From: a virus
DNA: 64,000 bases
IMG/VR virus record: IMGVR_UViG_3300045135_000745
Span: 1-64,000 of that record
Direction: 5' to 3' (one strand)
Below the pieces are notes generated by a model. The model was not told the DNA's origin and ran no database searches. It saw nothing but the letters and a program-made list of their open reading frames with translations. Shown here in pieces: positions 26,642 through 49,100 of this stretch (the stretch's first letter is position 1; each line of letters begins with the position of its first letter). A program made the position numbers and the translations under genes.

Positions 26642-26649
26642 TATTTATA
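26642..26649 (-). promoter_or_regulatory. late promoter TATAAATA for gp18
   Basis: Exact consensus. Confidence 0.7.
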
Positions 26650-26661
26650 AGAAATTATATT

Positions 26662-30406: not shown

Positions 30407-30410
30407 TTTC

Positions 30411-31187: not shown

Positions 31188-31201
31188 TATTTATATTTAT
31201 A
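31188..31201 (-). promoter_or_regulatory. two overlapping late promoters TATAAATA for gp13
   Basis: TATTTATA at 31188-31195 and 31194-31201. Confidence 0.65.
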
Positions 31202-31652: not shown

Positions 31653-31667
31653 TTGTGTCCCTATCGA

Positions 31668-32315
31668 TTAAAAGGATAAAGTTATAATATTCCATGCGTT
31701 TGCTTCATTAAATAATACACTTGCAGATGTAACTGTATAGTTACCCGTATAACCAGTATTCTCTGTATTTAATGTTGCAGCGCAATGTATATAATTTAAA
31801 TCTAAATTAAAATCTTGATAGCTTAAATTCATATTTGAAGTTCGTGCCTGATAAGCGCCTTGTCCAGCCATTACTATATGAGGTAATGTGGAATTTACTG
31901 GGATAGTAGTAGAAAATGTTTGAGTGCTATTTCCGGTATAAACATTTGTAACCCCAGTAACTTTTTTATTAAATCTATACAATGCATTACATTGTCTTCG
32001 GTCAAAATTACCTGAGCCTATAGCATTAAAAGCTTGTGCTTCTGTACCATTACAAATTCTATATCCAAGTTTAATGGTTTCTATATAAGAACCGCTCCAA
32101 GGACTACCTGTACGAGCATTTATCTGTGTGATACCAGATGCAAATGTGCAGTTAAACGCATAACCACCTATAAAAGAGATTAATAAATCCCCATCTTGTG
32201 GGGCTTCAGATAATGTGGGTGCAGTAGAAGTTCCTATAACTGCACTTACAAGACTACCAGTTATAGCGCCACCACCAACACCCCCGGCGCCTGCAGCTTT
32301 TTTATATAAAAACAT
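31668..32315 (-). CDS. putative fibre tip / receptor-binding protein
   Basis: N-terminal AAGAGG linker, beta-rich, next to the chaperone; AT-rich. Confidence 0.5.
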   Translation of the reverse strand: MFLYKKAAGAGGVGGGAITGSLVSAVIGTSTAPTLSEAPQDGDLLISFIGGYAFNCTFASGITQINARTGSPWSGSYIETIKLGYRICNGTEAQAFNAIGSGNFDRRQCNALYRFNKKVTGVTNVYTGNSTQTFSTTIPVNSTLPHIVMAGQGAYQARTSNMNLSYQDFNLDLNYIHCAATLNTENTGYTGNYTVTSASVLFNEANAWNIITLSF

Positions 32316-32788
32316 TATCCATTTCCTACTAATACACCATAATAGGTATTATCCATTTTCCACATCGATATAGCAGTATATCCAGTCGCAGCCATATCAG
32401 GAGCTGTTCCACCATTATTTAACCAAGTCATAGTTGGCCAAGTTACGGTATATGCACCCGCATTTAGTAGCAATAATATCGACTGCCCATTATCCCATAA
32501 TAAAGGCGAAATCGTAGTGTTAGCATTCAAGGTATATCGGTGTATCCCTCCTTGATCGGGGTTAACTGAGAGTGTTCCTCCCCATGTGAATCCAAATACT
32601 GTTTCAGTTAAATAAGTAACAGTATCACCGCTGCTGAGGATTCCTGCGGGTAAATGATCGGCGATGTTTGCAGTCGTTACAGCACTAGTAGGTAAGCTAT
32701 TCGCAATATTTTCAGTGGTAATAATTGATTGAGGCAAAATTGCCGTAGAAAAAGTTTGACTAAATCTATCTGATAATCTTCGTGGCAT
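32315..32788 (-). CDS. putative fibre-associated structural protein
   Basis: GQSILL...AYTVTWP...W..GG.AP motif common in phage fibre modules. Confidence 0.55.
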   Translation of the reverse strand: MPRRLSDRFSQTFSTAILPQSIITTENIANSLPTSAVTTANIADHLPAGILSSGDTVTYLTETVFGFTWGGTLSVNPDQGGIHRYTLNANTTISPLLWDNGQSILLLLNAGAYTVTWPTMTWLNNGGTAPDMAATGYTAISMWKMDNTYYGVLVGNG

Positions 32789-32798
32789 ATTCTACCCC

Positions 32799-34256
32799 TT
32801 ATGCGCTATAGATCGTTTTTAGTGCGGTACCGCTTGAATTGTAAATTATTAAACTGTCGTTGCTATGTACAATACCAGGATTTGAGTATACTTGCCATGT
32901 AGTACCATCGTATATGAATTGAACTTGTGCACCAGAAATGTCTAAAAGATAATCATCAGCAACCGATTCGATAGTTTGTCCATTTCTTGCTACTGTCAAA
33001 TTATTTGATGCCCAACTTCCGCCATCTCCCACAATAACCTGATCACCAGTACTTGGTGTGGCTGGAAGAGTTAATGTCCATGCACCACCAGTAGTATCTG
33101 CAATAATACCTTCACCGGCAGCAGCAGTATATGTTGTAGTTTTTTTGGTAAAAGTAATACCGCCACCACCACCACCACCAGAGCCCCAACTAAATGAACC
33201 ATCACCGTCAGAAAGAAGTGCTTGACCTGCTGTACCATTACCCGAAACATTTAGTTCATTAGCACCAACTACATTAGCCGCAATCTGAGCATTAATAGAG
33301 GTAGTACCAGAACCAGTTAAATCACCAGATAATGTAATTGTCTGGTTTCCGGTCAAATATGATCCTGCTGGTTGAATTCCTGCTTCAGCTAATGTATTAT
33401 TAACCCAAGCGCTTCCATTCCATTTTAAAATTTCACCAGACGTATTGCTTGTAATAGTAGTATTCGATAAACCGTCTAATGTGTGGTTATGAGATGTTTG
33501 AGAGAAAGAGCTTGCCTGAATACCATCCAATGTATCGGCATCAAGACCTGAACCTGAACCATCTACCGTTTTTATAAGTGTTAGGATTTCAGAAGCTGTT
33601 TGATCGCCAGTTGCCCCGGCTTCGATACCTGCAAGCTTAGAAGCTTCAGTCGATGTATATCCCTGATAGCCGGTAGCATAGGTAATTGCTAATGTGCCGC
33701 TAGTTGTAACAGGACTTCCTGATATTGCAAACCCGGTTGGAACAGTTGCCGAGACGGAGGTAACCGTGCCTGTATTTGTTGTATAACCACTAGGATTTGT
33801 TGCAAGATAAAAAGCGGTTGCATGATTTCCATCAAGCAAGTCAGCATCAAGACCAGAAGCAGCACCATCAACAGTTTTGATCGCAGTAAGGATTTCTGAG
33901 GCAGTCTGATCGGCAGTAGCACCTGCTTCAATACCCGCTAATTTAGAAGCTTCAGTGGATGTATATCCCTGATAGCCTGCTGAATATGTAATAGAAAAAG
34001 TACCGCTTGTAGTAATCGGGCTTCCTGATATTGCAAAGCCAGTCGGAACAGTAGTTGCTACTGATGTAACTGTACCGGTATTTGTTGTATAACCCGCGCC
34101 GTTTGTTAATTGATTATTGTTTGTCGGAATTGTAGGGGTATTAGTAAAGTTATTATAATCTAAGTAGTATGAAGAAGCTTGCCCATTAAGCTTCACGGCA
34201 CCAGTAGAATCTATGTAATTATTAATTTGGGATAAGTCAAAAGATCTTGAACTCAT
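32799..34256 (-). CDS. tail fibre-like protein with a 102-aa internal duplication
   Basis: GLDADLLDG and KLAGIEAGAT fibre repeats, TLPATPSTGD..V module. Confidence 0.8.
   Translation of the reverse strand: MSSRSFDLSQINNYIDSTGAVKLNGQASSYYLDYNNFTNTPTIPTNNNQLTNGAGYTTNTGTVTSVATTVPTGFAISGSPITTSGTFSITYSAGYQGYTSTEASKLAGIEAGATADQTASEILTAIKTVDGAASGLDADLLDGNHATAFYLATNPSGYTTNTGTVTSVSATVPTGFAISGSPVTTSGTLAITYATGYQGYTSTEASKLAGIEAGATGDQTASEILTLIKTVDGSGSGLDADTLDGIQASSFSQTSHNHTLDGLSNTTITSNTSGEILKWNGSAWVNNTLAEAGIQPAGSYLTGNQTITLSGDLTGSGTTSINAQIAANVVGANELNVSGNGTAGQALLSDGDGSFSWGSGGGGGGGITFTKKTTTYTAAAGEGIIADTTGGAWTLTLPATPSTGDQVIVGDGGSWASNNLTVARNGQTIESVADDYLLDISGAQVQFIYDGTTWQVYSNPGIVHSNDSLIIYNSSGTALKTIYSA
33520..34094 (-). 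repeat. diverged tandem duplication (306-nt period) within the fibre gene
   Basis: GYTTNTGTVTSV...GLDAD.LDG occurs twice. Confidence 0.85.
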
Positions 34257-34266
34257 TTTCTATACC

Positions 34267-34920
34267 TTATGTTGTCGGGCTGTACATAGTTTTTAAAGCT
34301 GTACCACTAGAATTATAAATCGTTAAAGTTTGAACCCCAGCAAAATTAGAACTAGTAATATCATTATAAGTTGCAACATTAAATGTTGTAAATGCTATAA
34401 CTTGTAAGTCATCTCCAGCAGTTGCGCCACTATTTAAAACAATACTAGTTCCGTTTGATGCTGTATAATCATCCCCAGGTCTTAAAACAATACCGTTTAA
34501 AGAAACTATAATACTACCAACGGTATAACTTAACGTAGCGGCATTATCATCAGCCCCGGTAAAAGTAGTTTGTCCCCCGGTAGCAGTATATTCATATATT
34601 GTTAATGTCTGACTTGCTGCGTCAGCAAATGATAAATTACCAGCACCGTCAGTTTTTATAACTTGACCGTTAGAACCATCTGAGGTGGGTAATGTAAATG
34701 TATTAACGAATGAGGTAAGATTTGCATCATATGCTTGAATAGTAGACCCAATCTTATTATCAATAAGATCTGAATCTACAAAATTCTTAATTATGTTTGA
34801 GGAATTTTTATAGTAAAGTCTACCATCAGCATAGTTGAGGGCAACTTCGCCATATTCTAGATCACCAGTTCCTGGTGCATTACTAGATACAGATGATTTT
34901 TTAAGTAGGACTTTTGCCAT
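34267..34920 (-). CDS. fibre/virion structural protein
   Basis: LKKSSV...P...DL.YGEVALNYADG.LYYK N-terminus, YTATGGQTTF module. Confidence 0.75.
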   Translation of the reverse strand: MAKVLLKKSSVSSNAPGTGDLEYGEVALNYADGRLYYKNSSNIIKNFVDSDLIDNKIGSTIQAYDANLTSFVNTFTLPTSDGSNGQVIKTDGAGNLSFADAASQTLTIYEYTATGGQTTFTGADDNAATLSYTVGSIIVSLNGIVLRPGDDYTASNGTSIVLNSGATAGDDLQVIAFTTFNVATYNDITSSNFAGVQTLTIYNSSGTALKTMYSPTT

Positions 34921-34984
34921 AGTAATTCCTTAAAAAAGGGTTTAGTTTAGAGTCTGGAATATAAAAATATCCCAGACTTTCAGT

Positions 34985-34992
34985 TATTTATA
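34985..34992 (-). promoter_or_regulatory. late promoter TATAAATA
   Basis: Exact consensus, intergenic. Confidence 0.65.
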
Positions 34993-34993
34993 A

Positions 34994-36577
34994 TTAGAAT
35001 GTGCCGCCATCAATAGTGGCAAGAGCAACTGCACCAGCGGTAACTGTAAACTCATTTGCATCAAAACTTGCAACACCCTTGTTAGAAGAGCTAGCAAGCT
35101 CTGCTGCAAAAGTGATTGTACCAGCGCCATCGTCATATGTAATGTCGAGACCTTCGCCTTCGGCAAAAGTGCTGCTAACAAGGTGATCTTCAAGAACTTC
35201 TTTCCAATCAACCCCAGCAAACTCAAGTGATGTAGAACCTGTCATATTCAGGGTCTTGTTCATCTCCCATTCATCGTTTGCACCGTTGAATGTAAAGGTA
35301 GCTTTCGTGCCTGAGTAAAGCGCTCCACCGATTGTAATACCAGCACCATCCGCTGCGGCAGCGTTACCAGCTGAATCGGCAAGAACCATATTTAAATCAT
35401 TGATGGAAACTGTAGTTGAGTTAACTGTTGTCGTAGTACCTTGTACTGTAAGACTACCACGAATAATAACGTCACCGCCATCAGAATCAATTGGGTTTGG
35501 ATCGAGGTAAAGAACGCCAGTTGTAGATGCGACAGTATTATCAAGGATCCTAATATTATCAACATCAATCTGGGTTAAGCCAGCAATAGTTGTTGATGTT
35601 GCACCTAAAGCAATATTAGTAGAACCAATAGTTAAACTGGAGTTAGCGAGTTCAGCGTTAGCAACACCGCCATTTTTAATCGTAACTAAACCAGATGAAA
35701 CCGCAAAGTTATCTGAGCTAAATTGTGCAATACCTTTTGCCGAGGTAGAAGCATTATCACCAGCAACTGTAACAGTATTATCAGTTACCGTTGTAGTAAT
35801 ACCAGAGCCACCTGTGAAGGTCAGAGTATCCGAAGAGGTAACAGTGTCTGTACCAGTATCACCAGCAATAGCTAAATCCGTGGAGATCGAAGCTGTGCCC
35901 GCTGCTGTTAAACGACCTTGCTGATCAACCGTAAATGTCGGAATAGCAGTTGAAGAACCATAAGACCCAGCAGTTACTGCTGTATTATCCAGGTCAATAG
36001 TAATAGTGTTATTAGTAACTGTAGTTGTAATACCAGTATCACCGGAGAATGTGACAGTCTCTTGACCGGCAACTGCATCAGGTGTACCACCATCTGCTGC
36101 TAAAGTAAAGATGGTTGAGCCACCAGCAAACTGGTCGTCAACATATTTTTTAGTAGCAGCATCCTGATTTGATGTAGGATCAACCACGTTAGTAATTTTA
36201 GAAGTAGCAACGTCTACTGCCCCGGAACCATTAGGGCTAAGTACGATATTACCATTCGTATCTGTTGAGCTGATCGTATTACCATTCAGATCAAGGTTAT
36301 CGACTTTTAAGTTATCGATCTTACTTGATGCATCGACGATAATTGCACTGGAGGCTGTAAGCGTACCAGCGACATGATCAAGCATATTAGTAAAATATTC
36401 ACCGCCGACTACGACGATTGATGTTGCGTTACCTGAGCCATCGTCACCCTTACCAAAAAACAGGCGGTCGCCTGAATTGGCCTGAGTGCCTGTTCCCATT
36501 GCATAGGCTATCTCGGCCGTTTTCAGGGAGCCTGGTGCCGAGGTGCCCGTAGATCTTTTGATTCTAATTACGGCCAT
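34994..36577 (-). CDS. fibre-like virion structural protein
   Basis: IRIKRS.G..AP N-terminus, DAATKKYVD, TVDQQGRLT, C-terminal DGGTF. Confidence 0.8.
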   Translation of the reverse strand: MAVIRIKRSTGTSAPGSLKTAEIAYAMGTGTQANSGDRLFFGKGDDGSGNATSIVVVGGEYFTNMLDHVAGTLTASSAIIVDASSKIDNLKVDNLDLNGNTISSTDTNGNIVLSPNGSGAVDVATSKITNVVDPTSNQDAATKKYVDDQFAGGSTIFTLAADGGTPDAVAGQETVTFSGDTGITTTVTNNTITIDLDNTAVTAGSYGSSTAIPTFTVDQQGRLTAAGTASISTDLAIAGDTGTDTVTSSDTLTFTGGSGITTTVTDNTVTVAGDNASTSAKGIAQFSSDNFAVSSGLVTIKNGGVANAELANSSLTIGSTNIALGATSTTIAGLTQIDVDNIRILDNTVASTTGVLYLDPNPIDSDGGDVIIRGSLTVQGTTTTVNSTTVSINDLNMVLADSAGNAAAADGAGITIGGALYSGTKATFTFNGANDEWEMNKTLNMTGSTSLEFAGVDWKEVLEDHLVSSTFAEGEGLDITYDDGAGTITFAAELASSSNKGVASFDANEFTVTAGAVALATIDGGTF

Positions 36578-36849
36578 TAGAAGTTGCCTCCGTTAAATGT
36601 AGTATTCGTATTTGTTAATTCAACTTTGGATTCAAAGTTTTGTGTTCCATCATTATATACTAGTAACGCGCCATCGGTAACGCCTGTGATATCGATACCA
36701 GCAAGAGAACCGAGTTCAATATCTCCAGAGGTGACTCTTCGCACAATTCTAACCGGCGTACCCACGGTAACTTTTTTAATGGTAGTTTGACTACCGGTAA
36801 CAGCTGTACGACTAACACTGCTTTGACCTGTAGTAATTCTAATTGCCAT
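36577..36849 (-). CDS. small virion structural protein
   Basis: DGALLVYN module, C-terminal GGNF. Confidence 0.6.
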   Translation of the reverse strand: MAIRITTGQSSVSRTAVTGSQTTIKKVTVGTPVRIVRRVTSGDIELGSLAGIDITGVTDGALLVYNDGTQNFESKVELTNTNTTFNGGNF

Positions 36850-36851
36850 TC

Positions 36852-37208
36852 TTACCTCGTGACCGACGGTGTTACTTCAAGATTTCCTTCCAATACTCTT
36901 TCAATGATAGTGTTTCCGGCACTATCATTATAAGAGATTTCCACATCATAAACCCAACGTCCAGGCTTCATAGCATCCGTCTGGGCGTTGGTTAATTCTA
37001 AAACTAATTTTCCGAGGGGTCTATTAACTTCTGTAAGGGTAGCAGTGAAATTTACCGTATTATCGCTATCTGCGTTATACGATCTTTTCGCCTTAGCTGC
37101 TGCACTAAAGCCATTCAAATTTTTTACAGATCCATCTTTATCGAGTAGTTCTAACTCGATTGCTACATCGGCGCCTTGGTCGATAGTGAATTCTTCGAAT
37201 TGAGCCAT
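36852..37208 (-). CDS. virion structural protein (IDQG..YDVE..RVLEG..V.P.VTR family)
   Basis: Motif widespread in marine T4-like phage fibre regions. Confidence 0.75.
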   Translation of the reverse strand: MAQFEEFTIDQGADVAIELELLDKDGSVKNLNGFSAAAKAKRSYNADSDNTVNFTATLTEVNRPLGKLVLELTNAQTDAMKPGRWVYDVEISYNDSAGNTIIERVLEGNLEVTPSVTR

Positions 37209-37233: not shown

Positions 37234-37241
37234 TATTTATA
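37234..37241 (-). promoter_or_regulatory. late promoter TATAAATA
   Basis: Exact consensus upstream of the fibre operon. Confidence 0.7.
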
Positions 37242-37270: not shown

Positions 37271-37306
37271 TAGGGGGATTTACAAACTAATGTTTATTGG
37301 TATAAT
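37271..37306 (+). promoter_or_regulatory. TAGGGGG-ATTTACA-N16-TATAAT promoter-like element, antisense to the radical SAM cluster
   Basis: Consensus -10 with TGn extension; no + strand gene follows. Confidence 0.5.
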
Positions 37307-37315: not shown

Positions 37316-38329
37316 TTATTCGGAGGGGGTTATATAACTATCAAGTAACCAAGTAGAAATCTGATTGTTAATCAGATGATCAATCTTATCATAATTGTAG
37401 TTTGACCGAGGTAATCTATCTAATTCTTCTTTTAGCGTATTGTAGATCTTTTTCAACTTTTCTAATGATAGATTCCAAATAGCACAGTGCTCCGGATATC
37501 GAATAGTATTGTACCAAAGCTTGACGTGGTGCTTGTGAGTCCATCTCGCAAACTCTACCATCTCATCCCAATTTTGTCGCATTGGATTAACCATAATGGA
37601 AAGATCCCGGTTACCCTCTTTACAGTACTTATTAAAGATCTCGAAGTTTTTAAATAACATCTGTAGATCGCCGTTAATACGGATCTCAGCATAACGTTCA
37701 GGAATAAGACTATCAATGGAGATGTTGATATGGATGTTGCACATATCTAGGATTTTCTGAACACGCTTATTATACACTGTGCCATTTGTAGCGATATTAA
37801 CTTTTAATCCTGGATTTAGTTCAGCAACATCTTCACAGATATCAAGAACAATCTTCTGTGCAAATGGTTCACCACCATTGAATCGTAATTCTTCCAGGTG
37901 TGGTATAAACTCTCTTAGCTGCTCACGGAATGATTCATCATAGATCTGTGGTAAAGGCGGTAGCTTATCACGATTCTTACGAATGCCAGAAGATAGTACA
38001 CCAGAACACATAACACATTCTAGGTTACATTGGTTACTCAGTTCCAGTTCCATGAGACTGGGATATTCTTTTACAGTAAACTGATCGTAAGCCTTTGCAA
38101 GCGGCCAAACGCCATTGTCAATATCTTTCTTACACTCTGCACACTTACCGAGAAACACGTCATTAGCAATATTATCTCTGATTCGTTGATAGTGCTCGCC
38201 AAACCAAATATCACGAATAGATCTTTCTGGTGACCAACGATCAATAGCACCAACAGTAAGCCAGCAAGGTGCAACTGTACCAAATACAGTAAAGTACATG
38301 TTATTGACTGGTGCTTTACATATAGGCAT
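37316..38329 (-). CDS. radical SAM protein with N-terminal SPASM/twitch domain
   Basis: CNLECVMC, GGEPF, TNGT, SIDS; N-terminal C..P...PCW...CAEC. Confidence 0.9.
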   Translation of the reverse strand: MPICKAPVNNMYFTVFGTVAPCWLTVGAIDRWSPERSIRDIWFGEHYQRIRDNIANDVFLGKCAECKKDIDNGVWPLAKAYDQFTVKEYPSLMELELSNQCNLECVMCSGVLSSGIRKNRDKLPPLPQIYDESFREQLREFIPHLEELRFNGGEPFAQKIVLDICEDVAELNPGLKVNIATNGTVYNKRVQKILDMCNIHINISIDSLIPERYAEIRINGDLQMLFKNFEIFNKYCKEGNRDLSIMVNPMRQNWDEMVEFARWTHKHHVKLWYNTIRYPEHCAIWNLSLEKLKKIYNTLKEELDRLPRSNYNYDKIDHLINNQISTWLLDSYITPSE

Positions 38330-39449
38330 AAATTAATTCACTCCATGCAGGATAAACTTCTTTAAAATCCTCTTGTCTGATTTTATCTAAGAATTCGGTT
38401 TCTTTTATAAAATTTTGATCCCATGATATATCACTCATCATGAAAAGAATGATTGCTTTGAATCTAGGATCTGACCCGTGTTTATTTAAGATTTCAATTT
38501 TAATCTTGGAATGTAGATTCTTAATACAAAGCCATCCAGGACCATGGAGTATATTGTTTACTGTCAGAATATCATTATCATCTGCCCAATCGAATAATTC
38601 GTGAAGATCCCATATATTATAATTGTTAATTGTTGGATGTAGTTTCAAATCAATATCATCATACGATCTAAGTTTTAAAATATTTTTTTCAATAGTTTTC
38701 CAATTAGCCGCGTGACGTTGATATTCTAATCTTTCTCCTATATCGTCAATACTGACTAATACCTTTACCTCTTTAAACTTTAGTAAACCATTAATCATGG
38801 ATTGATTTAAAATGCTACCGTTCGTAGTAATAAGAACTGTAATATTTTTTGCATATTCTGATTGAGAAATTATCTCTATCATTCTTTTTGATTCAGGACT
38901 TACGAATGGTTCACCGCCAGTGAATTCAATCTGTTCTAAATGTGGTAATACTTTATCGAAGAAATACTTTTCGTTTTTAGTACCAAGAATCTTATTTGAC
39001 AAATAATAATCTTCATCTTCTCTAACAAATCCGCGGAAAACTTTATCCTCTTTTAGTATTAAACTACTGTAAGAGTAATCACACATTCTACATTTAAAAT
39101 TACAGACATTACTCAATTTCAAATCAAAAAATTTGGGCGTATCTGCTTCTAATGTATATTTTTTTTCTTCCAAATAAACATCATTATAGATTTGTCTTAA
39201 ACTTCTAAATCCGGCTTTCTCTTCTTCCCAGCAAGATGAACATTCTGCGATCTTTTTATTATCTAAAAATGCTTGCCTGATCTTCTTGAAATCGTTACCG
39301 TTCCAGATCCCTTCATAAGTGTCGTCTTTCAAAGATCCGGTGGGGTAATTGAATTGACTACGCTTTTCTGCAAACTTACAGCATGGACGCACCAATCCTT
39401 CATTATCAGATGTGATACCAATCCATGGCATTACACAAAAATTATTCAT
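38316..39449 (-). CDS. radical SAM protein with N-terminal twitch domain
   Basis: CVMPW..RPCC..CSSCW, CNFKCRMC, GGEPF, TTNGS, SIDD. Confidence 0.9.
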   Translation of the reverse strand: MNNFCVMPWIGITSDNEGLVRPCCKFAEKRSQFNYPTGSLKDDTYEGIWNGNDFKKIRQAFLDNKKIAECSSCWEEEKAGFRSLRQIYNDVYLEEKKYTLEADTPKFFDLKLSNVCNFKCRMCDYSYSSLILKEDKVFRGFVREDEDYYLSNKILGTKNEKYFFDKVLPHLEQIEFTGGEPFVSPESKRMIEIISQSEYAKNITVLITTNGSILNQSMINGLLKFKEVKVLVSIDDIGERLEYQRHAANWKTIEKNILKLRSYDDIDLKLHPTINNYNIWDLHELFDWADDNDILTVNNILHGPGWLCIKNLHSKIKIEILNKHGSDPRFKAIILFMMSDISWDQNFIKETEFLDKIRQEDFKEVYPAWSELIYAYM

Positions 39450-39840
39450 CGTTTTTCTTTGTACAGTATTTCTCACATTGTCTTATAATCCGGTTAGGAC
39501 TATCCCAAGATTCTGGCAACGTTTTTGTAAACCATTCACTTCCTATAATTTCCTCTAACCCCACGTTATGGATATTATATTTTTCTTTATTGGTATAATA
39601 TTGCATTAGTGTATTATCTGCAAAAGTTTCATGCTGGATGATATTACGATCCCCGATTTGATTGCTGATATTATTTTCTCTTACCGGTCTATCTTCTGGC
39701 ACATCAAGTTTATCGAACATATAAATCACGTTTGCTAAATAACAGCATGGTAATACTTGTCCATCGGGATTAATTAGCAATCTTTTCGATTCCATCCACT
39801 GGCATCTGACGTTCATCTTATTTTCATTCAGTTGCTTCAT
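39442..39840 (-). CDS. stand-alone SPASM (Fe-S) domain protein
   Basis: C.W...INPDGQVLPCCYLAN...CEKYC. Confidence 0.75.
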   Translation of the reverse strand: MKQLNENKMNVRCQWMESKRLLINPDGQVLPCCYLANVIYMFDKLDVPEDRPVRENNISNQIGDRNIIQHETFADNTLMQYYTNKEKYNIHNVGLEEIIGSEWFTKTLPESWDSPNRIIRQCEKYCTKKNDE

Positions 39841-40261
39841 TTTTTCTCGGCCTGGATTTGTTAGGATGGTAATGTTCCGCATTAACCGAACAATATTTTT
39901 TACAAAGTCTATGTGTTAGATTTTCATCGTCCCAAGATTCTGGCAATGTCTTAGTAAACCATTCGTGATTTAAAATATCTTCTAATGAATTATTGTGAAG
40001 ATTTAATTTATCTTTATCCTTAAAATATTCTATAGCCAGATATGGATTTCTACTTTTATCGTTTCTAACAGCATCTTTTTTAAATTTCCCGCCACCATAT
40101 ACCATTTCATCTGGAAAATCTTTTTCAAGATCCGGACCGAAAAAATTCACCATTGAAAAAGAATTAGCAAGATAGCAACATGGATACACTTGACCATCGA
40201 TGTTTACTAATGCATTATTCTTTGCCATCCATTCACAGCGTATTTTTTGTCGATTCTTCAT
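39824..40261 (-). CDS. stand-alone SPASM (Fe-S) domain protein, paralog of the preceding ORF
   Basis: C.W...VNIDGQVYPCCYLAN...CKKYC; GAGGA RBS. Confidence 0.75.
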   Translation of the reverse strand: MKNRQKIRCEWMAKNNALVNIDGQVYPCCYLANSFSMVNFFGPDLEKDFPDEMVYGGGKFKKDAVRNDKSRNPYLAIEYFKDKDKLNLHNNSLEDILNHEWFTKTLPESWDDENLTHRLCKKYCSVNAEHYHPNKSRPRKNEATE

Positions 40262-41018
40262 ATATAATCCTCATATGTTCATCGTCATATAGATGCCAAG
40301 TCTTCCAATAGAAATCGCTGTTTTTTAGACTCGTCTTTTCTAAGACCTTTTCCATTCCAGTTTTATCGATGAATTTAAACTGTTGATTTTTATAGAATCT
40401 ATTCGATTGAACATAGAAGATATCTTCAGCCCCATAGTCTTTAACCATCTGAGCAATATTGTAAAGATCTTTTTCGTTGTGTTTAAAAGTTACTGTAAAC
40501 ACCTGACTTAAACCACCTGCTGCTGAGAAGGTTTCCATATTCTCTAATATCAAATCCAAATTAGTATCTTGACGATATAAAGAATGCTGGTCCTGTGTAA
40601 TACCTTCGACTGCCCACATAACGGTAATTCTTTTTTTACCTAATAAACCAAACTCCCACCACCAATCCGGATTTCTAAAACTTCCGTTTGTATTAACCAA
40701 TACGTTGGCTGATGAATAATCCATGATATATTTAACAATTTCAAATATATCTTTATTCATAATGGGATCACCCCAAGTACCACATATGTCAAAATGGTTA
40801 ATGTGCTGGAGAGTCTTTCTAGGAAACATCTTCTTAAATTCTTCAAAAGACCATTGCACTAAAGGTAACCAATCTGCTTTAACTAATCCGTTTGCATTTG
40901 TTCTATGACACTGCGGACATTTCGCATTACAATATGTAGAAAGATCCAACCACATCCCCAATTTCTTTTTTTCGTACTGGGTATTATAATTTTCAATCTG
41001 TGGTAATAAATCTTCCAT
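40233..41018 (-). CDS. radical SAM protein lacking its own SPASM domain
   Basis: CNAKCPQC, CGTWGDP, NTNGS. Confidence 0.88.
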   Translation of the reverse strand: MEDLLPQIENYNTQYEKKKLGMWLDLSTYCNAKCPQCHRTNANGLVKADWLPLVQWSFEEFKKMFPRKTLQHINHFDICGTWGDPIMNKDIFEIVKYIMDYSSANVLVNTNGSFRNPDWWWEFGLLGKKRITVMWAVEGITQDQHSLYRQDTNLDLILENMETFSAAGGLSQVFTVTFKHNEKDLYNIAQMVKDYGAEDIFYVQSNRFYKNQQFKFIDKTGMEKVLEKTSLKNSDFYWKTWHLYDDEHMRIIYEESTKNTL

Positions 41019-41679
41019 AATCTTTCCATTCATGTGGCTTATTCGTACTTCGAGTAAAGTGAACCATCTTTATATCTTGATGAAAGTCATTACCGTCGTA
41101 AAGTTTGTTCCCGGTAATTTCGAAATATTTATCCTCGATTTTTTGAGTGCTAATATCTGGATCACTTATCCATCGGGTAAACCAAGCATCTGGCATAAGT
41201 GTTACGTCCATTCCGTATAGACTATCCTGGACAAACATGAATTCACCATTCACTGGGCCAATGGTTAAACCAGCTTTAATATAGTAGTTTGTATAGTATG
41301 GAATATCGCTCATAAACTTTTCATAAATGTGTCGAGTTCTACTTGGCCAAAACTTATAAAATCCACCAGCCATTTTAAATGGTGTTCCATTAAAGTTCCA
41401 CCAATATGGAATAGAAACAAATTCATTCTTTGCACATGGATAATTAATCACTTCATGGTAGTCGTGAATCAGTAGCTTATCGATATCCATTACAATTACA
41501 GGTTCGTCGATATCCATACCGAAGACTTGTAACTTATTCCATTGCAGCGGAACCCACTTATGAAAAGGTTCACGAATCCAATGGACGTCGTGACCTTCTA
41601 ATTTACTGTTAATATAATCTTCATATTCAGGACCGTACTTTGTTCCGATCCTCACACAGAATACTTTCAAAGGAACCAT
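40993..41679 (-). CDS. GT-A fold glycosyltransferase-like protein
   Basis: VFCVRIGTKYGPEY, WNKL, MDID (DxD), VHF; paralog of 43134. Confidence 0.7.
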   Translation of the reverse strand: MVPLKVFCVRIGTKYGPEYEDYINSKLEGHDVHWIREPFHKWVPLQWNKLQVFGMDIDEPVIVMDIDKLLIHDYHEVINYPCAKNEFVSIPYWWNFNGTPFKMAGGFYKFWPSRTRHIYEKFMSDIPYYTNYYIKAGLTIGPVNGEFMFVQDSLYGMDVTLMPDAWFTRWISDPDISTQKIEDKYFEITGNKLYDGNDFHQDIKMVHFTRSTNKPHEWKDYGRFITTD

Positions 41680-42539
41680 TCCATTTTTTTATTAATGCAG
41701 TGATATAGCTTTGCGTGCGGATCACAAGCATTTACATTCTTTTTCTTTTCGTCTACAATATAATGCCATGGACCATTTAGATATTCAATTGGGATATCTT
41801 TCGAATGAACAAGATAAGAGAACAAAGTTTCATTATCATAACCGAATACGCGCCGAATGTTGTATGGGTACATGGAATCTTCGTCGGTCTTTAGCTCTGT
41901 CATAAGATCCAAATTCTCACGGAAGTTCTCGAAGTAACCTAGCTTCTTGATAGTCTCGGATGATGCAACCATAATACCCGTATTAAACACATCGTTATCT
42001 GGTTCATATCCTTCTTCCAATAGCATTGCATGAGCATTCCAATACTTAGTGGAAGGATTACGAATACACGTATTATAGTTTTTAGGATCTACAGTCTTAC
42101 CCCAGTGCGCAAGCGCATTCGAGTTCGCGCACCCGAACTTATTCTCAATATCATGAGCTGCAAAGATACAATCAGTGGTATTCGGTACAACGTCAAAATC
42201 CAAATAACATACAGCATCGTACTCGGCTGCCATATTACGCATTGTCCAATGCTTATAAAAGTTCACGATATCGTAATGTGAAACCTCTGGATAGTCAGTC
42301 TCAAACATTTCTATAAAGTCTTGATATTCTTTATCCCATTCGTATAAACGATAATCAGCACCAATAGCTTTAGCATACTGTTTATGACGTTCTATGATCT
42401 TATCATAGTTATTTAATAAAGCCAACTTTGTCTGCAGGCTTTTATCTGTCTGAACCTGTACATCGTTTTCAAACCAACCGGGATTATCTAACTTATCTTC
42501 GGGAATGTCTATGAATACGCTATAAACTATTTTCTTCAT
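41667..42539 (-). CDS. GT-A fold glycosyltransferase (GT8/GT34-like)
   Basis: YA..IGADY, YLDFDV (DxD), FNTGIMV, H.INK. Confidence 0.72.
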   Translation of the reverse strand: MKKIVYSVFIDIPEDKLDNPGWFENDVQVQTDKSLQTKLALLNNYDKIIERHKQYAKAIGADYRLYEWDKEYQDFIEMFETDYPEVSHYDIVNFYKHWTMRNMAAEYDAVCYLDFDVVPNTTDCIFAAHDIENKFGCANSNALAHWGKTVDPKNYNTCIRNPSTKYWNAHAMLLEEGYEPDNDVFNTGIMVASSETIKKLGYFENFRENLDLMTELKTDEDSMYPYNIRRVFGYDNETLFSYLVHSKDIPIEYLNGPWHYIVDEKKKNVNACDPHAKLYHCINKKMEWFL

Positions 42540-43159
42540 TTGCCGATTACCATATGTCTATTAAAGTCGCCTAAATTTAATGTGCCAGTATAAGCAACAT
42601 AATCTAGATTTAAATCAACAGCAAACAATTCTGCATCTGGCCAACAATTAATATGTGCATCTAAAGCAGTATAGTCATTTGTCTGAAAACAAATCCACGT
42701 GTCTTTCGGCTTATTCTTGATAATGCTTATAAGATCTTCCTGCTCCATATGCTCACAACTTGTATTAATAATAGCCGTGTATGGAGAGTAATCAGGCTTT
42801 TCATTTACATCTAATGTTTCGAATGCAATATCCTGATCATGGAATAGTTCCCAGCCGTAGAAGTCACACATTGGGTCCATATCGCTAGATGTAATATTCA
42901 TACTGGCATTCGGCCATAGCTTTCGCAGCTGATAAGCCATCATACCGTACCAACCACCTACTACAAGAAGATTACCATTTGGGTTGTTATAATGCTTATA
43001 GAATTCTTTCGCTAGCCACTCTTTACCTTCCCAGTGATTCTTATCCACTGAGTGCACAAGATCTTTAATACGAAATAGATCGTCGACCCCGTACATAGAT
43101 TCATCATAAACTTTTTCGCAGAGCTTAAGAACTCTATTTAAGATCGTCGAGTCCAACAT
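42536..43159 (-). CDS. class I SAM-dependent methyltransferase-like protein
   Basis: LVVGGWYG motif I, SSDMDP acidic motif II, INTSCEHM. Confidence 0.65.
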   Translation of the reverse strand: MLDSTILNRVLKLCEKVYDESMYGVDDLFRIKDLVHSVDKNHWEGKEWLAKEFYKHYNNPNGNLLVVGGWYGMMAYQLRKLWPNASMNITSSDMDPMCDFYGWELFHDQDIAFETLDVNEKPDYSPYTAIINTSCEHMEQEDLISIIKNKPKDTWICFQTNDYTALDAHINCWPDAELFAVDLNLDYVAYTGTLNLGDFNRHMVIGK

Positions 43160-43781
43160 TAATCTCCTCGAATGTCAATACACATGGGTCATAATCTACT
43201 TCAGGCTGATACTTCTTGGATTGAATGTATTTTTTATCGAAGACAAAATTATTTACACTAAAATCTTCATGTACCAGATATCGGTCGATCCCCACATATT
43301 TACGCATGAAATAATCACGGAAACCTGACTCGTTAAAGTGTGTCCAGTATTCTTGCATAGCTTCATTTGAAGCGTCCCAAGTCATTACTGAGCTGTTAAT
43401 ACGTACATCGTAGTTAGCTAGTCGATCGTATAACTTACCTTGCTTCCAGTGTGAATGCACAAGGGTAAGTTTTTCCCAATCACGTGGATCATCGTGAATG
43501 AGCGGATCCTTTAAAATCTTCACATCTAAGTCAAAGAAATATGTTTTACCTTTAAACGGCATCTCCAGATCAAATAAACGTAGTTTGTTCCACACGCCTT
43601 TTAAAGTTGGCCGCCCCAGAGGCGGTATAATGTTTACCTCAGGGTCAATATCTGTTGGATCGTCGGTATAACAGAAGAATTGGAATTCTGCTTTTGTTAA
43701 TCTTTTAATATCATGATAAAGCTTGTTTACGAAGTCTGCACTATACTTCGGGCCAAACTTCACACAGATCACATTATACAT
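43134..43781 (-). CDS. GT-A fold glycosyltransferase-like protein
   Basis: VICVKFGPKY, F.CYTDD, WNKLRLF, FFDLDV (DxD), NSSVM.W. Confidence 0.75.
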   Translation of the reverse strand: MYNVICVKFGPKYSADFVNKLYHDIKRLTKAEFQFFCYTDDPTDIDPEVNIIPPLGRPTLKGVWNKLRLFDLEMPFKGKTYFFDLDVKILKDPLIHDDPRDWEKLTLVHSHWKQGKLYDRLANYDVRINSSVMTWDASNEAMQEYWTHFNESGFRDYFMRKYVGIDRYLVHEDFSVNNFVFDKKYIQSKKYQPEVDYDPCVLTFEEINVGLDDLK

Positions 43782-43783
43782 TA

Positions 43784-44422
43784 TTATTCCCTTGCAGAGA
43801 TATAGATCTTAAATAATTCCCATAAAGATTTTGATTTTCTAACTGATAACTTAAGCTGTTTATCTTTAGATTTACCGATAATAGGATCTTCAAGAATAGC
43901 AATCTTAGCATTAAATACAAAATCATCATCTCGATCTTTGGAATCTATAATTGATAAAAGATCTTTAGCATTAATCTCAGAGGATTTTGGACCGGCTGTA
44001 ACGAATTTATCCTGAAGCTTTTTTCTAAGTTCAGAAAATTCTTCTTGAACTTCTTCAAACTTTTTCAGTTTTTCTTGCTCTGCATATTGGTCTAAGTCAC
44101 GATATCTTTTTTCTGCATAAGAATCGATATCTTCGTAGGCTTTTTGAATTTTAGATTGTTCAGCGGCCCAACGACGATCGATTTCATCATTAATCATTTT
44201 TTCAAATACATCAGACTCAACCTTTAAAGCTGCTTGAGTATTTTTCTCAATCTCTTCTAAGGTTAATTCCTGTAATAGATCGTTAAAATCGTTTGATGTG
44301 AAATCGACTTCTAAAATATAAGGAATTACTTTATCTTCTTCCTGATAAAGTAATTCAATAATCATATTATTCGGTAGATCTATAAATTTTGCGGAAATAA
44401 TTCTTTCGCTAAAAATAGCCAT
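43784..44422 (-). CDS. hypothetical coiled-coil protein
   Basis: Charged helical ORF coupled to the glycosyltransferase cluster. Confidence 0.7.
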   Translation of the reverse strand: MAIFSERIISAKFIDLPNNMIIELLYQEEDKVIPYILEVDFTSNDFNDLLQELTLEEIEKNTQAALKVESDVFEKMINDEIDRRWAAEQSKIQKAYEDIDSYAEKRYRDLDQYAEQEKLKKFEEVQEEFSELRKKLQDKFVTAGPKSSEINAKDLLSIIDSKDRDDDFVFNAKIAILEDPIIGKSKDKQLKLSVRKSKSLWELFKIYISARE

Positions 44423-44442: not shown

Positions 44443-45372
44443 TTAAACTTGTGTAACTCTCAAATAGTATGTAGAGATTGTAGTTGCAGTACCGCTGGGA
44501 ACTTCTTGCGTGCGGTAATCATCCGTATTTACAAATCTAGTAAGATAGGTAGAACTATTTAGTTTAGTATCGGTCATAGCTGTACCGCGGTTATTACCTG
44601 TACCATTTATATTATATGAAATTTTAGTACCAGTAATTTCTGCAGCATAATAACGCATCATACTTTGTAATGCTGTTTCAAACGTTGCCGAAGGGGTTTG
44701 ATAAAGATTTGTACCAGATTTGGTATAACAAATAGGAAGCTGATGTCCTGCAGCGGCGGCAGAATTAACTCTATGTAAATAATAGTTTGTAATAGTAGTT
44801 GGCTGATCTTGAGTTTCCGGAATACCGGAAGCTGTATATGCCGCAGCATTTGCTCGAGTATCGGTAAACACCGGCGTTGCTGATACTAATGTAGCTCCAG
44901 CAACTGAAGAGGATGTTGAAATAAAATATGTGCCGGCTTGCGCTGTTCCTGTTGACCCTGTTGTAAGACTATCGATTGCTGGATAAATGAATGTGTCTGC
45001 AAAATCTGTTGCAGTCATTTCCCTTAAATCACCAGCATCATAGTATAATGGGTAGGAATAAGATGCGTCAGTCCACGATACTTCAGATGTATCATATGTT
45101 TGATTCATTTTAGAATAATTAACGGTTACAGTAGATACATCAGGGGTTTCAGCTGGTGTATCATAATCAACTGGATCAGTCGTGCCTGCCCCAGCTTGTA
45201 AACGAGTATCGGATATTGTCCCTAAAGAACCACCAGAAGCTACAACCGATAATGTTACAGATGGATTTAAACCGTAAAGTCTGATTGCCTCGGTTTGGAT
45301 TGCAGTGATTTCTCCAGCTGACATTTCTTTTAAATTGCTGCCGTCAAGTTTTAAAGGAGTTCTAACCGCCAT
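44443..45372 (-). CDS. virion structural protein (MAVRTPL.. family)
   Basis: T/S/G-rich with internal repeated L.EM and YL modules; inside the structural operon. Confidence 0.7.
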   Translation of the reverse strand: MAVRTPLKLDGSNLKEMSAGEITAIQTEAIRLYGLNPSVTLSVVASGGSLGTISDTRLQAGAGTTDPVDYDTPAETPDVSTVTVNYSKMNQTYDTSEVSWTDASYSYPLYYDAGDLREMTATDFADTFIYPAIDSLTTGSTGTAQAGTYFISTSSSVAGATLVSATPVFTDTRANAAAYTASGIPETQDQPTTITNYYLHRVNSAAAAGHQLPICYTKSGTNLYQTPSATFETALQSMMRYYAAEITGTKISYNINGTGNNRGTAMTDTKLNSSTYLTRFVNTDDYRTQEVPSGTATTISTYYLRVTQV

Positions 45373-45374
45373 AA

Positions 45375-45992
45375 TTAACTTCCTGCACCGTACAATGTTT
45401 TAAGAGCTGTTCCGCTACTGTTATATATTACTAGCGCTACCTCGTCTTTTAAGTTTGCGCGTGCAACGCCATCATTAGCAATTGATACCGCACCACCTGA
45501 AACTGTAAAATTAGTAGAGCTAAAGCTAGCAATACCTTTATTCGCAGTTGTTGCATCTTCTCCAGATATTACACCCGATGTAATATCTATACCTTCACCG
45601 GCACTAAAGTGTGCTCTTACCTCAGAAGCGCTTGGACCAGTATATGTAATTATCCCAGTTGCTGAACTATATGATAATGATCCATCACCTCCAGCATCTG
45701 TTACACTGATATGTGCTCTTACCTCAGAAGCGCTTGGACCAGTATATGTAATTATCCCAGTTGCTGAACTATATGATAATGATCCATCACCTCCAGCATC
45801 TGTTACTGAGATTTTACTTCTAACATCCAAATCGGAATCGATTAATGCATATACAGAATTAATAGCGCCCACAATATCAGAATCTACTGTGGTATTTAAT
45901 GCTGTTAAATCTCCAACCTCTAATGATAGTTGATTAAACTTATTAACCATTTCATTAAAGTTATCGGAGATATTAAGATGTTGTTTCGCCAT
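45375..45992 (-). CDS. short fibre/fibritin-like structural protein
   Basis: N-terminal helical segment (VGDL..LNT...IVGAIN), 34-aa tandem repeat. Confidence 0.65.
   Translation of the reverse strand: MAKQHLNISDNFNEMVNKFNQLSLEVGDLTALNTTVDSDIVGAINSVYALIDSDLDVRSKISVTDAGGDGSLSYSSATGIITYTGPSASEVRAHISVTDAGGDGSLSYSSATGIITYTGPSASEVRAHFSAGEGIDITSGVISGEDATTANKGIASFSSTNFTVSGGAVSIANDGVARANLKDEVALVIYNSSGTALKTLYGAGS
45610..45806. repeat. tandem duplication: two identical 95-bp copies, period 102 bp
   Basis: 45610-45704 is identical to 45712-45806. Confidence 0.92.
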
Positions 45993-46195
45993 TATAGTTT
46001 CTCTATGATCTGGGTTAGCATGGATTTGATATCATTAACATCTTGTTTCAACTGTTCAATTTCCTGCTTCTGCCTGTTACGATTCTCTTTTGCTTTCCTA
46101 GCCATATTAATTTCAGAGGTATTTATATTAATAATTGCACCGGTTTTCGGATCTCTTCCAAATCCCGGCGCGTTATCAGCTTTTAGTATTTTCAT
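45992..46195 (-). CDS. small conserved protein following VrlC-like genes
   Basis: RDPKTGAIIN + coiled coil ..DVNDIKSML. Confidence 0.75.
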   Translation of the reverse strand: MKILKADNAPGFGRDPKTGAIININTSEINMARKAKENRNRQKQEIEQLKQDVNDIKSMLTQIIEKL

Positions 46196-49100
46196 TATAC
46201 TGCCAATGCGATTGTTCTAATATCCTTAAACACTGGCACCTTCGCTTGATTTTCTGAAACCATAACAATTTTTATTTGTAATTGATTGAAAGCATCCAGT
46301 GTACCAGTATTACCTCCAATCAGATATTCATATTCTCTGAATACTTCCGGATTTTCATCACTGATTAGTCCTGACGTAGAAGTAATTGCTGTCCATGAAA
46401 GGTCGGAGATATTATCATCACCGGAAGCTACTCTATAATACACGTCGAATGAAGCTGCATTAGGCTTATTAGCAGTAATGAATAACTTCATACCAACAGC
46501 ATCTTGCGCTAGAGTAATAACTTTACTTATATGCTTAGCAACTGATGAACCACCCTTCGGATCTGTTTCTGCTACGTAGTTAATTGGTACGTTAAATCCT
46601 GCAGCAGGTGAAGCTGCCGGCTTATCAATAATATTATTAATAGCAAGAACCGAAGCTCTTTGCATATCAATAACTGGTGAAACTTTTTTATCTGTTGTCT
46701 GAAGACCTATTTTCAGATTAAAGCTTTTTGCGCCGCTGAGATATGTAGTTTCATTATTACCATTTGCGATCATCTGAGGAGCATCGAATGCAATATTTTT
46801 ACCAATAGTCATAGGCGTATAAGTTGAAGCTTGCTGATAAGCAGTTTCTGTACCAGCAATCGATTGTGCCGTAGTGGTTTTAATCGATGCAGTAATAGAT
46901 GTTTCAGTAGGTCTTAAAGTTGCAAGACTGATATTAGCAATATCCATCAAAATGTTTTGGTCTGCTAAGATAGCTGATCCGCCACCAATTTCTGCAGAAG
47001 TAGCATCAGAATCTGCTTCAAATTGATAACCAGTTGCATCTACTACTGTAATAGTTCTAGCGCCATTAATGGAAGAAGCACTAATGCCAGCCATGTCTGT
47101 TGCGCCTGAGATATTAACCGTATCGCCAACTGCAAATCCATGATTAGGTTGATACACCGAGATTGTTGCATCAGCAGAATCAACTGATAATGGATCTTCA
47201 GTTAATAGTTTCTGTGGAACAGAAGCGTTGTTAAGAACAACCTCACCGTAACTGGTATTGAATGCTGCAGTGTAGATATGTATTTTCATATCTTCCCACT
47301 GAGTAGCTGTCCAAGTTGAGTTATTCTGAGATTTAAACAAGGAGCCTAAGAATGGCTGCTTAACAACTTTCTTATCTGTTGTACCTAATACATAATCACC
47401 AACTTTAGAAATAAAGACTCTATACGTCGGAACAGAAGAAATAAGAACGAAGCAGTATTCCTTATTAGGATTCAAATAAACCGGTTCTTCGAATTCGAAT
47501 GTAGTTGCTACGCTCGCATCATCCGATACTGTAATTTCAGATGGGAATTTAAATACTGTTGAACCTCCGATAACCTCAGAAGTCGGATACCCGTTTTCAA
47601 TAGCACGAATTTGACCCCAAACTGGAGCAGTGCCAGTATCTTTTTCTGCAAAATACACATCAACTTTTGTAGCAAATACGCCATTAGTATTAGAAATAAA
47701 GAATGATTGTGCTAATGGATCCGATCTATTGTGGGCCAGTAATCCATTCGCAAAATATGTATTGTTACCATCTAAGATAAAGTTATAGACTGTCTGTTCT
47801 GGCTCATCAGAGAATACCTCTAATGATTCAACCAGCATCCAAGAACCGTCTTCCATAAGGATTTCATCACCAACCTGAAGATCTTTAACATCTAAGAAAC
47901 CCATTTCAGGGAACTGATACGCAAAAGTTTCAGCAGAGTATGATCTCCAGCCATTCTTGGTAAAGAGCGGGTGTTCGGGGGTCATGAATGGACCATTACC
48001 ATTAATACCAATGAAATCTCTTCCATCTAATGCTGGATGGTCAAATTCAAGAACAGTATTGATAGCGCCATCTTGACCCAGAAGTTTTTCACCGATCTCA
48101 ACATCTTCAATCTTTTTCTTAGTGCCATCAGCCATAGTGATAAGAGTCCCGGCAATAAAGCAAGAACGTTCAATAGGAGGCGCTGGCGGTCTTGGTGGTG
48201 GCGGGGGCGGAGTAACCACTGGCGGCGGTGGCGGATTAGTTGTAGTTCCAATAACCCTACTAGACGAACTACTAGTAGTTCTTTGGCTACTAACAACCTC
48301 CAATACTCTAGTGCTTAAAACATCTCTTTGTCTTGTCTGTAGCGTACCAGCAGCAGTAAAAACTTGTCTTCCATAGGAGGTAGAAAATTCGATATTATTA
48401 AGATCAGTTATGTCAATTAGTTCAAAGTCTCTGCTACCAGTTCTAAATCTAAAGTTAGCTGTCGACGGAATAAAGAATGAACCTTCTATATTGCCATTAG
48501 CATCAGCAATTAAAGATGAAGAACCTTCTGGATGGCCAAGTGCAGTATTTTCAGTATTACCGAATGTAGTCGTATCATCAGAAGCACGAGTAAAGGTTTC
48601 TGCCCTACACCAATCTGATACATCAATACCGTCAAAGAATGGGAATACTTCAGTATCAGGTCTAAACCCTTGGCCTCTGAAATATACTTTTCTCGATCTC
48701 ATGAATGGGATAGAAACTCCTTGGACTAATCTATCACCGACGATCTCTGTGATAGTAGTTTCACCTACAATTCTATTATTACCGGTGGTGGTAGAAGACC
48801 ATGAGTTTCGAATAGTTTCTGTACCACCAGTACCGAAATCTCCAGCAGTATTATTAACAGAAGTGCTAGAACCACCGCTAGAACTTAATGTGATGGTGTT
48901 TGTAACCGACCCAACTTGCAATTGATCTAGCGGAGTACCTCCCCAATTCCACTGATGGGCATTCCAAAGGTTTGCCCCGGAAGTATCTAATTGAGTTTGA
49001 TTTACAATCGCATCTGGTTGATACTCTTGTTCAATCCAGTTATCGCTCGCTGGTGAAAGTGCAATATTACCGTCGAATCTAATAGTCCAATATGGAAGAA

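Follow-up and report, generated by a model that had tools for sequence, protein, structure and literature searches.

The window analyzed here is the first 64 kb of a 79.9-kb viral contig in IMG/VR (record IMGVR_UViG_3300045135_000745; estimated completeness, 48%), and the element in question is a cassette of ten genes, c1–c10 (37316–44422), which lies on the minus strand, as do all features given below unless stated otherwise. The contig comes from a marine T4-type, pelagimyophage-like phage that is near the myophages of SAR11. Neighbors among the ten open reading frames (ORFs) are spaced by −59 to +2 nt and thus either overlap or abut, and c1 lies 20 nt from the upstream gene g-1, in agreement with a first-pass annotation of this DNA, which described overlapping or abutting genes running on from g-1. 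VrlC (46195–51840; 1881 residues), with the baseplate wedge genes coming next, stands on one side of the cassette and fiber genes stand on the other, whereas 20 kb separate the cassette from the end of the replication module (17243); the layout thus bears out the claimed position between baseplate and fiber genes, far from the replication genes. Three small structural-type genes, g-1, g-2, and g-3, occupy the space between the cassette and VrlC. The site is the published "host recognition cluster" of pelagimyophages, the interval from VrlC to the neck, for which Zaragoza-Solas et al. (2020; PMC7029224) named the gene classes, including tail fibers, GT8 glycosyltransferases, and radical S-adenosylmethionine (rSAM) cassettes, and guessed at a change of the host O-chain.

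In terms of sequence profiles, Pfam, NCBIfam, and the PDB gave nothing for c2–c5 or g-1, and the identities of c2–c5 were for this reason taken from folds and from relatives. The AlphaFold2 (AF2) model of c5 (40993–41679; 228 residues; DID motif), built on a deep alignment from related loci, has a predicted local distance difference test score (pLDDT) of 91.4, and its top Foldseek matches are GT24 and GT8 enzymes of the GT-A fold (probability 1.0). The matches include the UGGT catalytic domain, GT8 enzymes, glycogenin, LgtC, GlyE, WbbM, and A64R of PBCV-1, with a template modeling (TM) score of 0.67 for a viral GT8 enzyme. The c2 protein (43134–43781; 215 residues) is a paralog of c5, as seen from the comparison of the two families (hhalign 99.5%, E 3.4e-22) and from a match to the glycosyltransferase family phrog_1962 (E 8.6e-5). 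Its DxD motif reads DLD with D84 and D86 invariant, and the DxD is likewise invariant in c5. The third enzyme, c4 (41667–42539; 290 residues), is probably a GT8-like retaining GT-A glycosyltransferase, with an invariant DFD motif, and is the most widely conserved member of the cassette, with 576 homologs, many of which carry PF01501. It gives no Pfam hit itself even at E 5; relatives at 57–69% identity score 28–30 bits against a Pfam GT8 gathering threshold of 24.3. The three DxD-containing GT-A glycosyltransferases that had been proposed are upheld, c5 by its fold, c2 by its homology to c5, and, with less certainty, c4 by its DFD motif and the relatives that pass the GT8 threshold. Comparison of c2 and c5 with c4 by hhalign, with shallow alignments, gave no signal, and descent of all three from one ancestor is unsupported.

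The single methyltransferase claimed for the cassette was confirmed as c3 (42536–43159; 207 residues), whose AF2 model (pLDDT 94.5), like that of c5 derived from a deep alignment of related loci, has the class I fold of enzymes that use S-adenosylmethionine (SAM). Among the PDB matches listed by Foldseek (probability 1.0, TM 0.5–0.68), nearly all are SAM methyltransferases and the remainder are other SAM-using enzymes; its atlas neighbors are also methyltransferases. The G-G-W-Y-G loop and D93/D95 are conserved, and there is no Pfam hit. The first gene of the cassette, c1 (43784–44422; 212 residues), follows g-1 and encodes a helical protein with a central coiled-coil insert, in line with the coiled-coil ORF that was said to precede the enzymes. 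It is not an orphan: comparison by hhalign (99.4%, E 3.7e-21) places it in a conserved family of 160–197 residues that stands after g-1 in 40 related loci, and the coiled-coil insert is a feature of the window copy. No Pfam hit was obtained for c1, and there is a weak match to a phrog tail-assembly chaperone (E 0.0075).

The cassette also encodes three rSAM enzymes, as had been claimed, with the CxxxCxxC motif in c6, c9, and c10. The Radical_SAM family PF04055 is recognized above its gathering threshold in c9 (43.2 bits) and c10 (47.8 bits), and c6 falls slightly under it (27.9 versus 29.5 bits) and is backed by phrog_21308 (E 6e-26). In c9 (38316–39476; 386 residues) and c10 (37316–38329; 337 residues; phrog_14086, E 1.6e-20), an N-terminal twitch domain precedes the rSAM core, with the Pfam SPASM and Radical_SAM matches at residues 14–83 and 121–297 of c9 and at residues 4–67 and 96–263 of c10. 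The c9 protein reaches 308.6 bits over model positions 2–397 of the NCBIfam family NF033640, whose cutoff is 170, and is thus a scored member. With 138.2 bits, c10 is under this cutoff; it shares the domain order and the four N-terminal cysteines of c9, and on these grounds we classify it as a divergent paralog of c9 and a relative rather than a scored member of NF033640. It is the best conserved rSAM among close relatives (85%). The four invariant N-terminal cysteines of c9 and c10 follow the pattern C-x17-C ... C-x2-C, and a profile of the N-twitch proteins has a match (E 4.5e-8) in BtrN's twitch domain, which agrees with the earlier pointer to sugar-acting rSAM enzymes of the BtrN type. The profile of the rSAM core is nearest to viperin, MoaA, and BlsE. 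No characterized rSAM enzyme with an N-terminal twitch domain was found in the literature.

The third rSAM protein, c6 (40233–41033; 266 residues), is a core without a C-terminal cluster domain, and the two genes that follow it, c7 (39824–40261; 145 residues) and c8 (39442–39882; 146 residues), are paralogs that encode free twitch-like, or half-SPASM, Fe-S modules. Two free SPASM proteins had been reported here; two free cluster modules are indeed present, but their match is limited to positions 1–23 of the 67 positions of SPASM (PF13186), with five cysteines each and no CX2CX5CX3C block. Neither the seven-cysteine pattern that includes this block nor a full-length PF13186 match was found in c7, c8, c9, or c10, and the auxiliary modules of all four fit the one-cluster twitch type rather than full SPASM. 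In distant relatives (L108, L151, L130, and L141), single ORFs of 346–377 residues unite a c6-like core with a c7/c8-like tail; c7 aligns to about residues 246–343 of these fused proteins, and c8 aligns to them too. Because distant relatives hold core and tail in one ORF, c6 together with c7 or c8 is best read as a split rSAM/C-terminal twitch enzyme whose detached cluster module is present in two copies. The single module of three relatives (L005, L006, and L009) is 51–60% identical to c8 and nearer to it than to c7. We considered, and rejected, ribosomal slippage as a way of joining c6 and c7: because c7 is in the +1 frame of c6, the A-run where the two overlap could serve only through a +1 shift, and the retention of the split across many lineages also disfavors it. 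We take the pair to be probably a real two-subunit enzyme. A search of viral contigs for loci related to c6 found none, and the c6 relatives were obtained through other anchors.

Upstream of the cassette, g-1 (44443–45372; 309 residues) encodes a Ser/Thr-rich protein (S+T, 27%, similar to the fibers) that is 33–79% identical across 34 diverse relatives and corresponds to Mosig_00097 of the cultured Pelagibacter phage Mosig. It is a candidate partner or acceptor of the cassette enzymes. Its conservation is far above that of the surrounding fibers, and it contains an internal repeat, P-L-x-x-x-G-x-L-x-E-M, near residues 6–20 and about residues 110–125, along with two DTR motifs. The next gene, g-2 (45375–45992; 205 residues), encodes a fiber-like protein with the C-terminal tag IYNSSGTALKTLY. 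Three fiber-like proteins of the window, encoded by g-2 and at 34267–34920 and 32799–34256, share the tag IYNSSGTALKT-x-Y, a pattern with ~200 occurrences in IMG/VR and a single carrier among isolates, Mosig_00098. The I, G, K, T, and Y positions are kept, with L in place of Y in Mosig, and NSS varies (DNS, NNA, NSA). The tag was considered as an N-glycosylation sequon and this was ruled out, as NSS is not conserved.

The neighborhood comparison that had been proposed as a check of the first-pass annotation was carried out on viral relatives. Scanning for the fiber tag added another ~80 viral loci, whose VrlC proteins are as little as about 30% identical, and the 42 loci with g-1 and no less than 4 kb of downstream DNA form our linkage set; all were selected through the tag and constitute a biased sample. 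The order VrlC, tagged fiber protein, g-1, and then at least one transferase of the c2, c4, or c5 type is present in 42/42 loci. An rSAM gene is found in 35 of them and a methyltransferase gene in 32, and c4 occurs in most. Recurrent additional genes in related loci encode an NAD-dependent sugar epimerase/dehydratase (17), a carbamoyltransferase of the NodU/CmcH type (16), a nitroreductase (11), and extra N-twitch rSAMs (21). In the close relatives L002–L010, the cassette occupies the same site, and its rSAM part ranges from three to seven rSAM-related genes. One locus, L173, encodes a 968-residue fusion of an N-twitch rSAM and a carbamoyltransferase (6742–9648, minus strand of the locus), and its relative L163 has the two as adjacent genes. 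With respect to isolates, a megablast search of the cassette against isolate phages gave no match, and only Mosig has homologs of c4 (Mosig_00091, 37% identical), c6, g-1, and the fiber tag.

The timing of expression was addressed through promoter motifs. The late-promoter motif TATAAATA occurs 18 times in the window (7.8 expected), 14 of these on the coding strand, and 12 of the 14 are in gaps upstream of genes. From the copy ahead of g-2 (46120) to the one ahead of d1 (37234), the coding strand carries no other, as expected from the claim that the cassette has no recognizable promoter of its own. The motif at 46120–46127 has g-2 as the first gene past it, and that at 37234–37241 falls within the 107 nt beyond c10, where the next unit begins with d1, which encodes a tail-fiber assembly homolog. 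Because no coding-strand TATAAATA intervenes, the cassette would most simply be the tail of a late VrlC/g-2/g-1 message. In relatives, TATAAATA is found upstream of cassette genes, namely c3 in seven distinct cases and the epimerase in L132–L134, and upstream of inverted blocks in L108, L129/130, and L133/134. Late expression thus seems likely for the window phage and for part of the family. A scan for sigma-70-like sites showed no excess (60 sites versus 70.7 in shuffles). There is one strong sigma-70-like site on the plus strand in the gap after c10 (37279–37306; TTTACA, 16 nt, TG-TATAAT, 11/12), which points antisense into the cassette and has no plus-strand ORF behind it.

Taken as gene content, the cassette probably represents a route for the assembly or tailoring of a glycan, because relatives add a sugar epimerase/dehydratase and a carbamoyltransferase to the transferases; Mosig has genes annotated as sugar aminotransferase, epimerase, and carbamoyltransferase beside its c3-c4-c5 homologs. 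The rSAM-carbamoyltransferase fusion and the BtrN-like twitch likewise point to sugar substrates, as do the GT2, GDSL, and carbamoyltransferase genes that adjoin NF033640 members in bacteria. As to the acceptor, virion fiber proteins are our best single guess, and a tentative one. This guess draws on the 42/42 linkage to the fiber-like g-2 and the Ser/Thr-rich g-1, on the conservation of the c1 family at the site, on the confinement of both the tag and c4 to Mosig among isolates, on soluble enzymes and a late layout, and on the GT8/GT24-type folds, which include the protein-directed UGGT, glycogenin, GlyE, and A64R of PBCV-1. Of the original proposal of a glycan or other adduct on virion proteins, the building or tailoring of a glycan is therefore well supported by the sugar genes of relatives and the BtrN-like twitch; the virion acceptor is a guess of less than even probability.

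From the enzyme identities, their conservation and linkage, and the promoter layout, we infer a sugar substrate, a timing, and an acceptor as follows. The three retaining-type GT-A transferases, c4, c5, and c2, would add sugars from host nucleotide sugars, and c3 would methylate. The three rSAM enzymes, c9, c10, and the split enzyme of c6 with c7 or c8, each with one auxiliary twitch Fe-S cluster, would carry out radical tailoring of the sugars, possibly oxidation, epimerization, dehydration, or C-modification, as in BtrN and BlsE. Transcription would be late, in the window as the tail of the VrlC/g-2/g-1 message, and the acceptor would be g-2, g-1, or the downstream fibers, yielding progeny with decorated fibers. 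The explanation that we favor as a whole, with somewhat less than even confidence, is thus a cytoplasmic module for building and tailoring a glycan that is expressed late and whose likeliest acceptor is a neighboring fiber-like virion protein.

Several observations weigh against this explanation. The GT8 gene runs in the same direction as g-1 in 8 of 39 relatives and lies on the opposite strand in the other 31, and most inverted blocks in relatives show no late motif in the available DNA. Late co-expression with virion proteins, as stated in the first-pass annotation, is accordingly plausible for the window, which has gp55 (the late sigma factor, 14588–15190) and T4-type late motifs with none in the cassette, but it is not general. 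Similar rSAM modules are also located beside nrdA/nrdB in a locus of another phage group (L013) and in phage KVP40, and together with the antisense GT8 genes they weaken the argument that continuity of the operon speaks for a virion acceptor, which turns out to be lineage-specific. No motif for an acceptor emerged, with NSS variable in the tag, and no virion glycan has been seen for the pelagimyophage-like group. GT8 enzymes act on lipopolysaccharide (LPS) too. The 42 loci were all chosen via the tag and are not an unbiased set, and the VrlC-neck region is a known hot spot of accessory genes (PMC7029224), so that the linkage may be positional.

A different acceptor, the host envelope, is the first alternative to be weighed. 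Here the enzymes would alter the LPS O-chain or capsule during infection and thereby keep rival phages from adsorbing, or progeny from attaching to debris. A change of the O-chain is favored in PMC7029224, where GT8 is the commonest glycosyltransferase family in pelagimyophages and typical of LPS synthesis; the fold matches of c5 to LgtC and WbbM, and the GT2, ABC ATPase, and GDSL genes of bacterial NF033640 loci, which resemble polysaccharide loci, are in line with it. The membrane components that characterize Gtr-type O-antigen modification and LPS synthesis loci are absent: hydropathy and family scans reveal no membrane protein, flippase, polymerase, ligase, or bactoprenol/lipid-carrier transferase in the cassette (no 19-residue window with a Kyte-Doolittle mean of 1.6 or more and no membrane segment in c1–c10). 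Moreover, co-transcription with late virion genes would leave little time for exclusion, and the strict 42/42 linkage to g-2/g-1 is unnecessary for this role. On these grounds we consider remodeling of the envelope unlikely.

The second alternative has no nearby macromolecular acceptor, the product being a small glycoside, which might be a cofactor or resemble an aminoglycoside, or a converted pool of host nucleotide sugars. Three GT8/GT24-type transferases without a scaffold-forming enzyme better fit the building of a chain on a macromolecule, the phage cassette contains no export gene, and the linkage to fiber genes is constant, which together make a soluble product quite improbable, even though the nearest solved relatives of the rSAM enzymes, BtrN, BlsE, viperin, and MoaA, act on small molecules. 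Bacterial contexts of NF033640 with B12-rSAM, PhyH and WelO5-type oxygenases, and AMP-binding enzymes resemble natural-product clusters, and a cyanophage paper classes a similar trio as "antibiotic synthesis" (PMC12801897).

Modification of a phage DNA base or of a nucleotide precursor by sugar and radical chemistry would be consistent with the genes beside nrdA/nrdB. In L013 (4285–13379), nrdA and nrdB are separated by an insertion that carries a carbamoyltransferase and two DUF6071-like genes along with a c10-like rSAM (56%) and that adjoins ThyX and an HNH/NUMOD3 endonuclease, and the rSAM gene KVP40.0272 and a GT1-family gene adjoin nrdA/B. The rSAM cores are nearest to the nucleotide-acting viperin and MoaA, and weak PP-loop/QueC-like accessory genes occur in 5 related loci. 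Against these stand the distance of the cassette from the replication module and its place among late genes, as well as the absence of PF00303 (the ThyA-family hydroxymethylase) from both the 79.9-kb contig, which is 48% complete, and the complete Mosig genome. Glucosylation of DNA of the T-even type is unlikely: in Mosig, ThyX is present and a hydroxymethylase of the ThyA family is absent, and the transferases have the GT-A fold, whereas the enzymes that glucosylate T4 DNA are of the GT-B fold. Overall, we give hypermodification of nucleotides or DNA a low probability. Elsewhere in the window, two genes adjoining DNA polymerase (4033–5336) encode a weakly QueC-like PP-loop protein (phrog_1550, E 4.5e-6) and a 223-residue protein; this pair is a better-placed candidate than the cassette for any modification of DNA bases in the phage.

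Finally, direct cross-linking or epimerization of the shared C-terminal tag by rSAM maturases of the kind acting on peptides that are ribosomally made and then modified post-translationally (RiPPs), with separate glycosyltransferases, is highly improbable: SPASM/twitch rSAMs are classic peptide maturases, weak NCBIfam similarity to cyclophane and sactipeptide maturases is seen, and one tag is common to three fiber proteins, but these similarities are confined to the generic rSAM core, the Tyr and Ser positions of the tag vary (L for Y in Mosig), the carbamoyltransferase fusion and BtrN-like twitch indicate sugars, and no conserved short precursor ORF was seen in the cassette ORF list, no dedicated precursor search having been run.

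The remainder of the window is organized in the same orientation. A T4-type replication module (117–17243), which includes gp55, is followed by head, portal, sheath, terminase, and neck genes (19092–31166) and by fiber and fiber-assembly genes (31197–37208). The GC content of the cassette is 0.34–0.37, compared with 0.38–0.40 in its flanks, and its GC skew is stronger than theirs; at 38000–44000, the skew is −0.13 to −0.17, against about −0.04 in flanks with a GC content of about 0.39. This shift suggests that the cassette is of different origin or history than its flanks.

That GT8 and rSAM genes occur at the VrlC-neck site has already been published. The present analysis contributes the assignment to the N-terminal-twitch family, the split enzyme, the families to which c1 and g-1 belong, the linkage to g-2/g-1 in every locus of the set, and the coupling of rSAM and carbamoyltransferase. 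The broader notion that SAR11-type ocean myophages decorate their tail fibers with an rSAM-tailored, methylated (in relatives also carbamoylated) glycan is possible, though doubtful. If it is true, NF033640 would constitute a new class of radical enzymes that tailor sugars in cooperation with carbamoyltransferases, which would provide the first functional context for a large uncharacterized bacterial family whose genes are often in tandem beside carbamoyltransferases, and gain, loss, and inversion of the cassette would tune host recognition or evasion of defense. Decoration of the virion would also extend phage glycosylation past mycobacteriophages and giant algal viruses, with radical chemistry unseen there. 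Pelagimyophage-like phages are among the commonest large marine phages, and the host recognition cluster is the most variable part of their genomes; the question can be put to a direct test in Mosig, a cultured relative that infects Pelagibacter ubique HTCC1062.

Among known systems, Mosig (EXVC030M; MT647606, genes 82–99) is the most direct comparison, as it has homologs of the tagged g-2, g-1, c3-c4-c5, and c6 at the same site. Its enzyme block, unlike that of the window, is on the opposite strand, identities are low (23–59%), and it has additional genes annotated as aminotransferase, carbamoyltransferase, and nitroreductases. More distant rSAM homologs are found in KVP40 (KVP40.0272, about 25% identical to c10 and paired with a glycosyltransferase beside nrdA/B) and in Campylobacter phage CP220 (31% identical to c6). 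Both lie in other genome regions and, unlike the window genes, are without a GT8/methyltransferase/g-1 module.

With respect to decorated virions, Freeman et al. in 2023 reportedly described glycosylation in mycobacteriophages. The virion glycans of mycobacteriophages and of chlorovirus PBCV-1 (A064R; PDB 2p72) have been demonstrated by experiment, whereas the window is known from its genes alone. These systems resemble the window in having virus-encoded GT-A transferases and a methyltransferase beside structural genes, and A64R of PBCV-1 is among the fold matches of c5; they differ in being without rSAM enzymes.

The rSAM enzymes themselves are best compared with BtrN (PDB 4m7s), the twitch dehydrogenase of butirosin biosynthesis, which has one auxiliary cluster, the pattern C-x17/18-C ... 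C-x2-C, and a sugar-like substrate. The twitch domain is N-terminal to the core in c9 and c10 and C-terminal in BtrN, and BtrN is not a closer match to the cores than viperin or MoaA. Bacterial NF033640 proteins share the architecture of c9; no member with a known reaction was found. Their genes form tandem arrays of paralogs, up to nine in 17 kb (L016–L095), in Bdellovibrionales, Chitinophagales, Flavobacteriales, Acidimicrobiales, and Paenibacillus, with other rSAMs, GT2 transferases, GDSL enzymes, carbamoyltransferases, and ABC ATPases as neighbors. Tandem paralogs are thus common to bacteria and phage, and it is the company of GT8-like enzymes and fiber genes that sets the phage copies apart.

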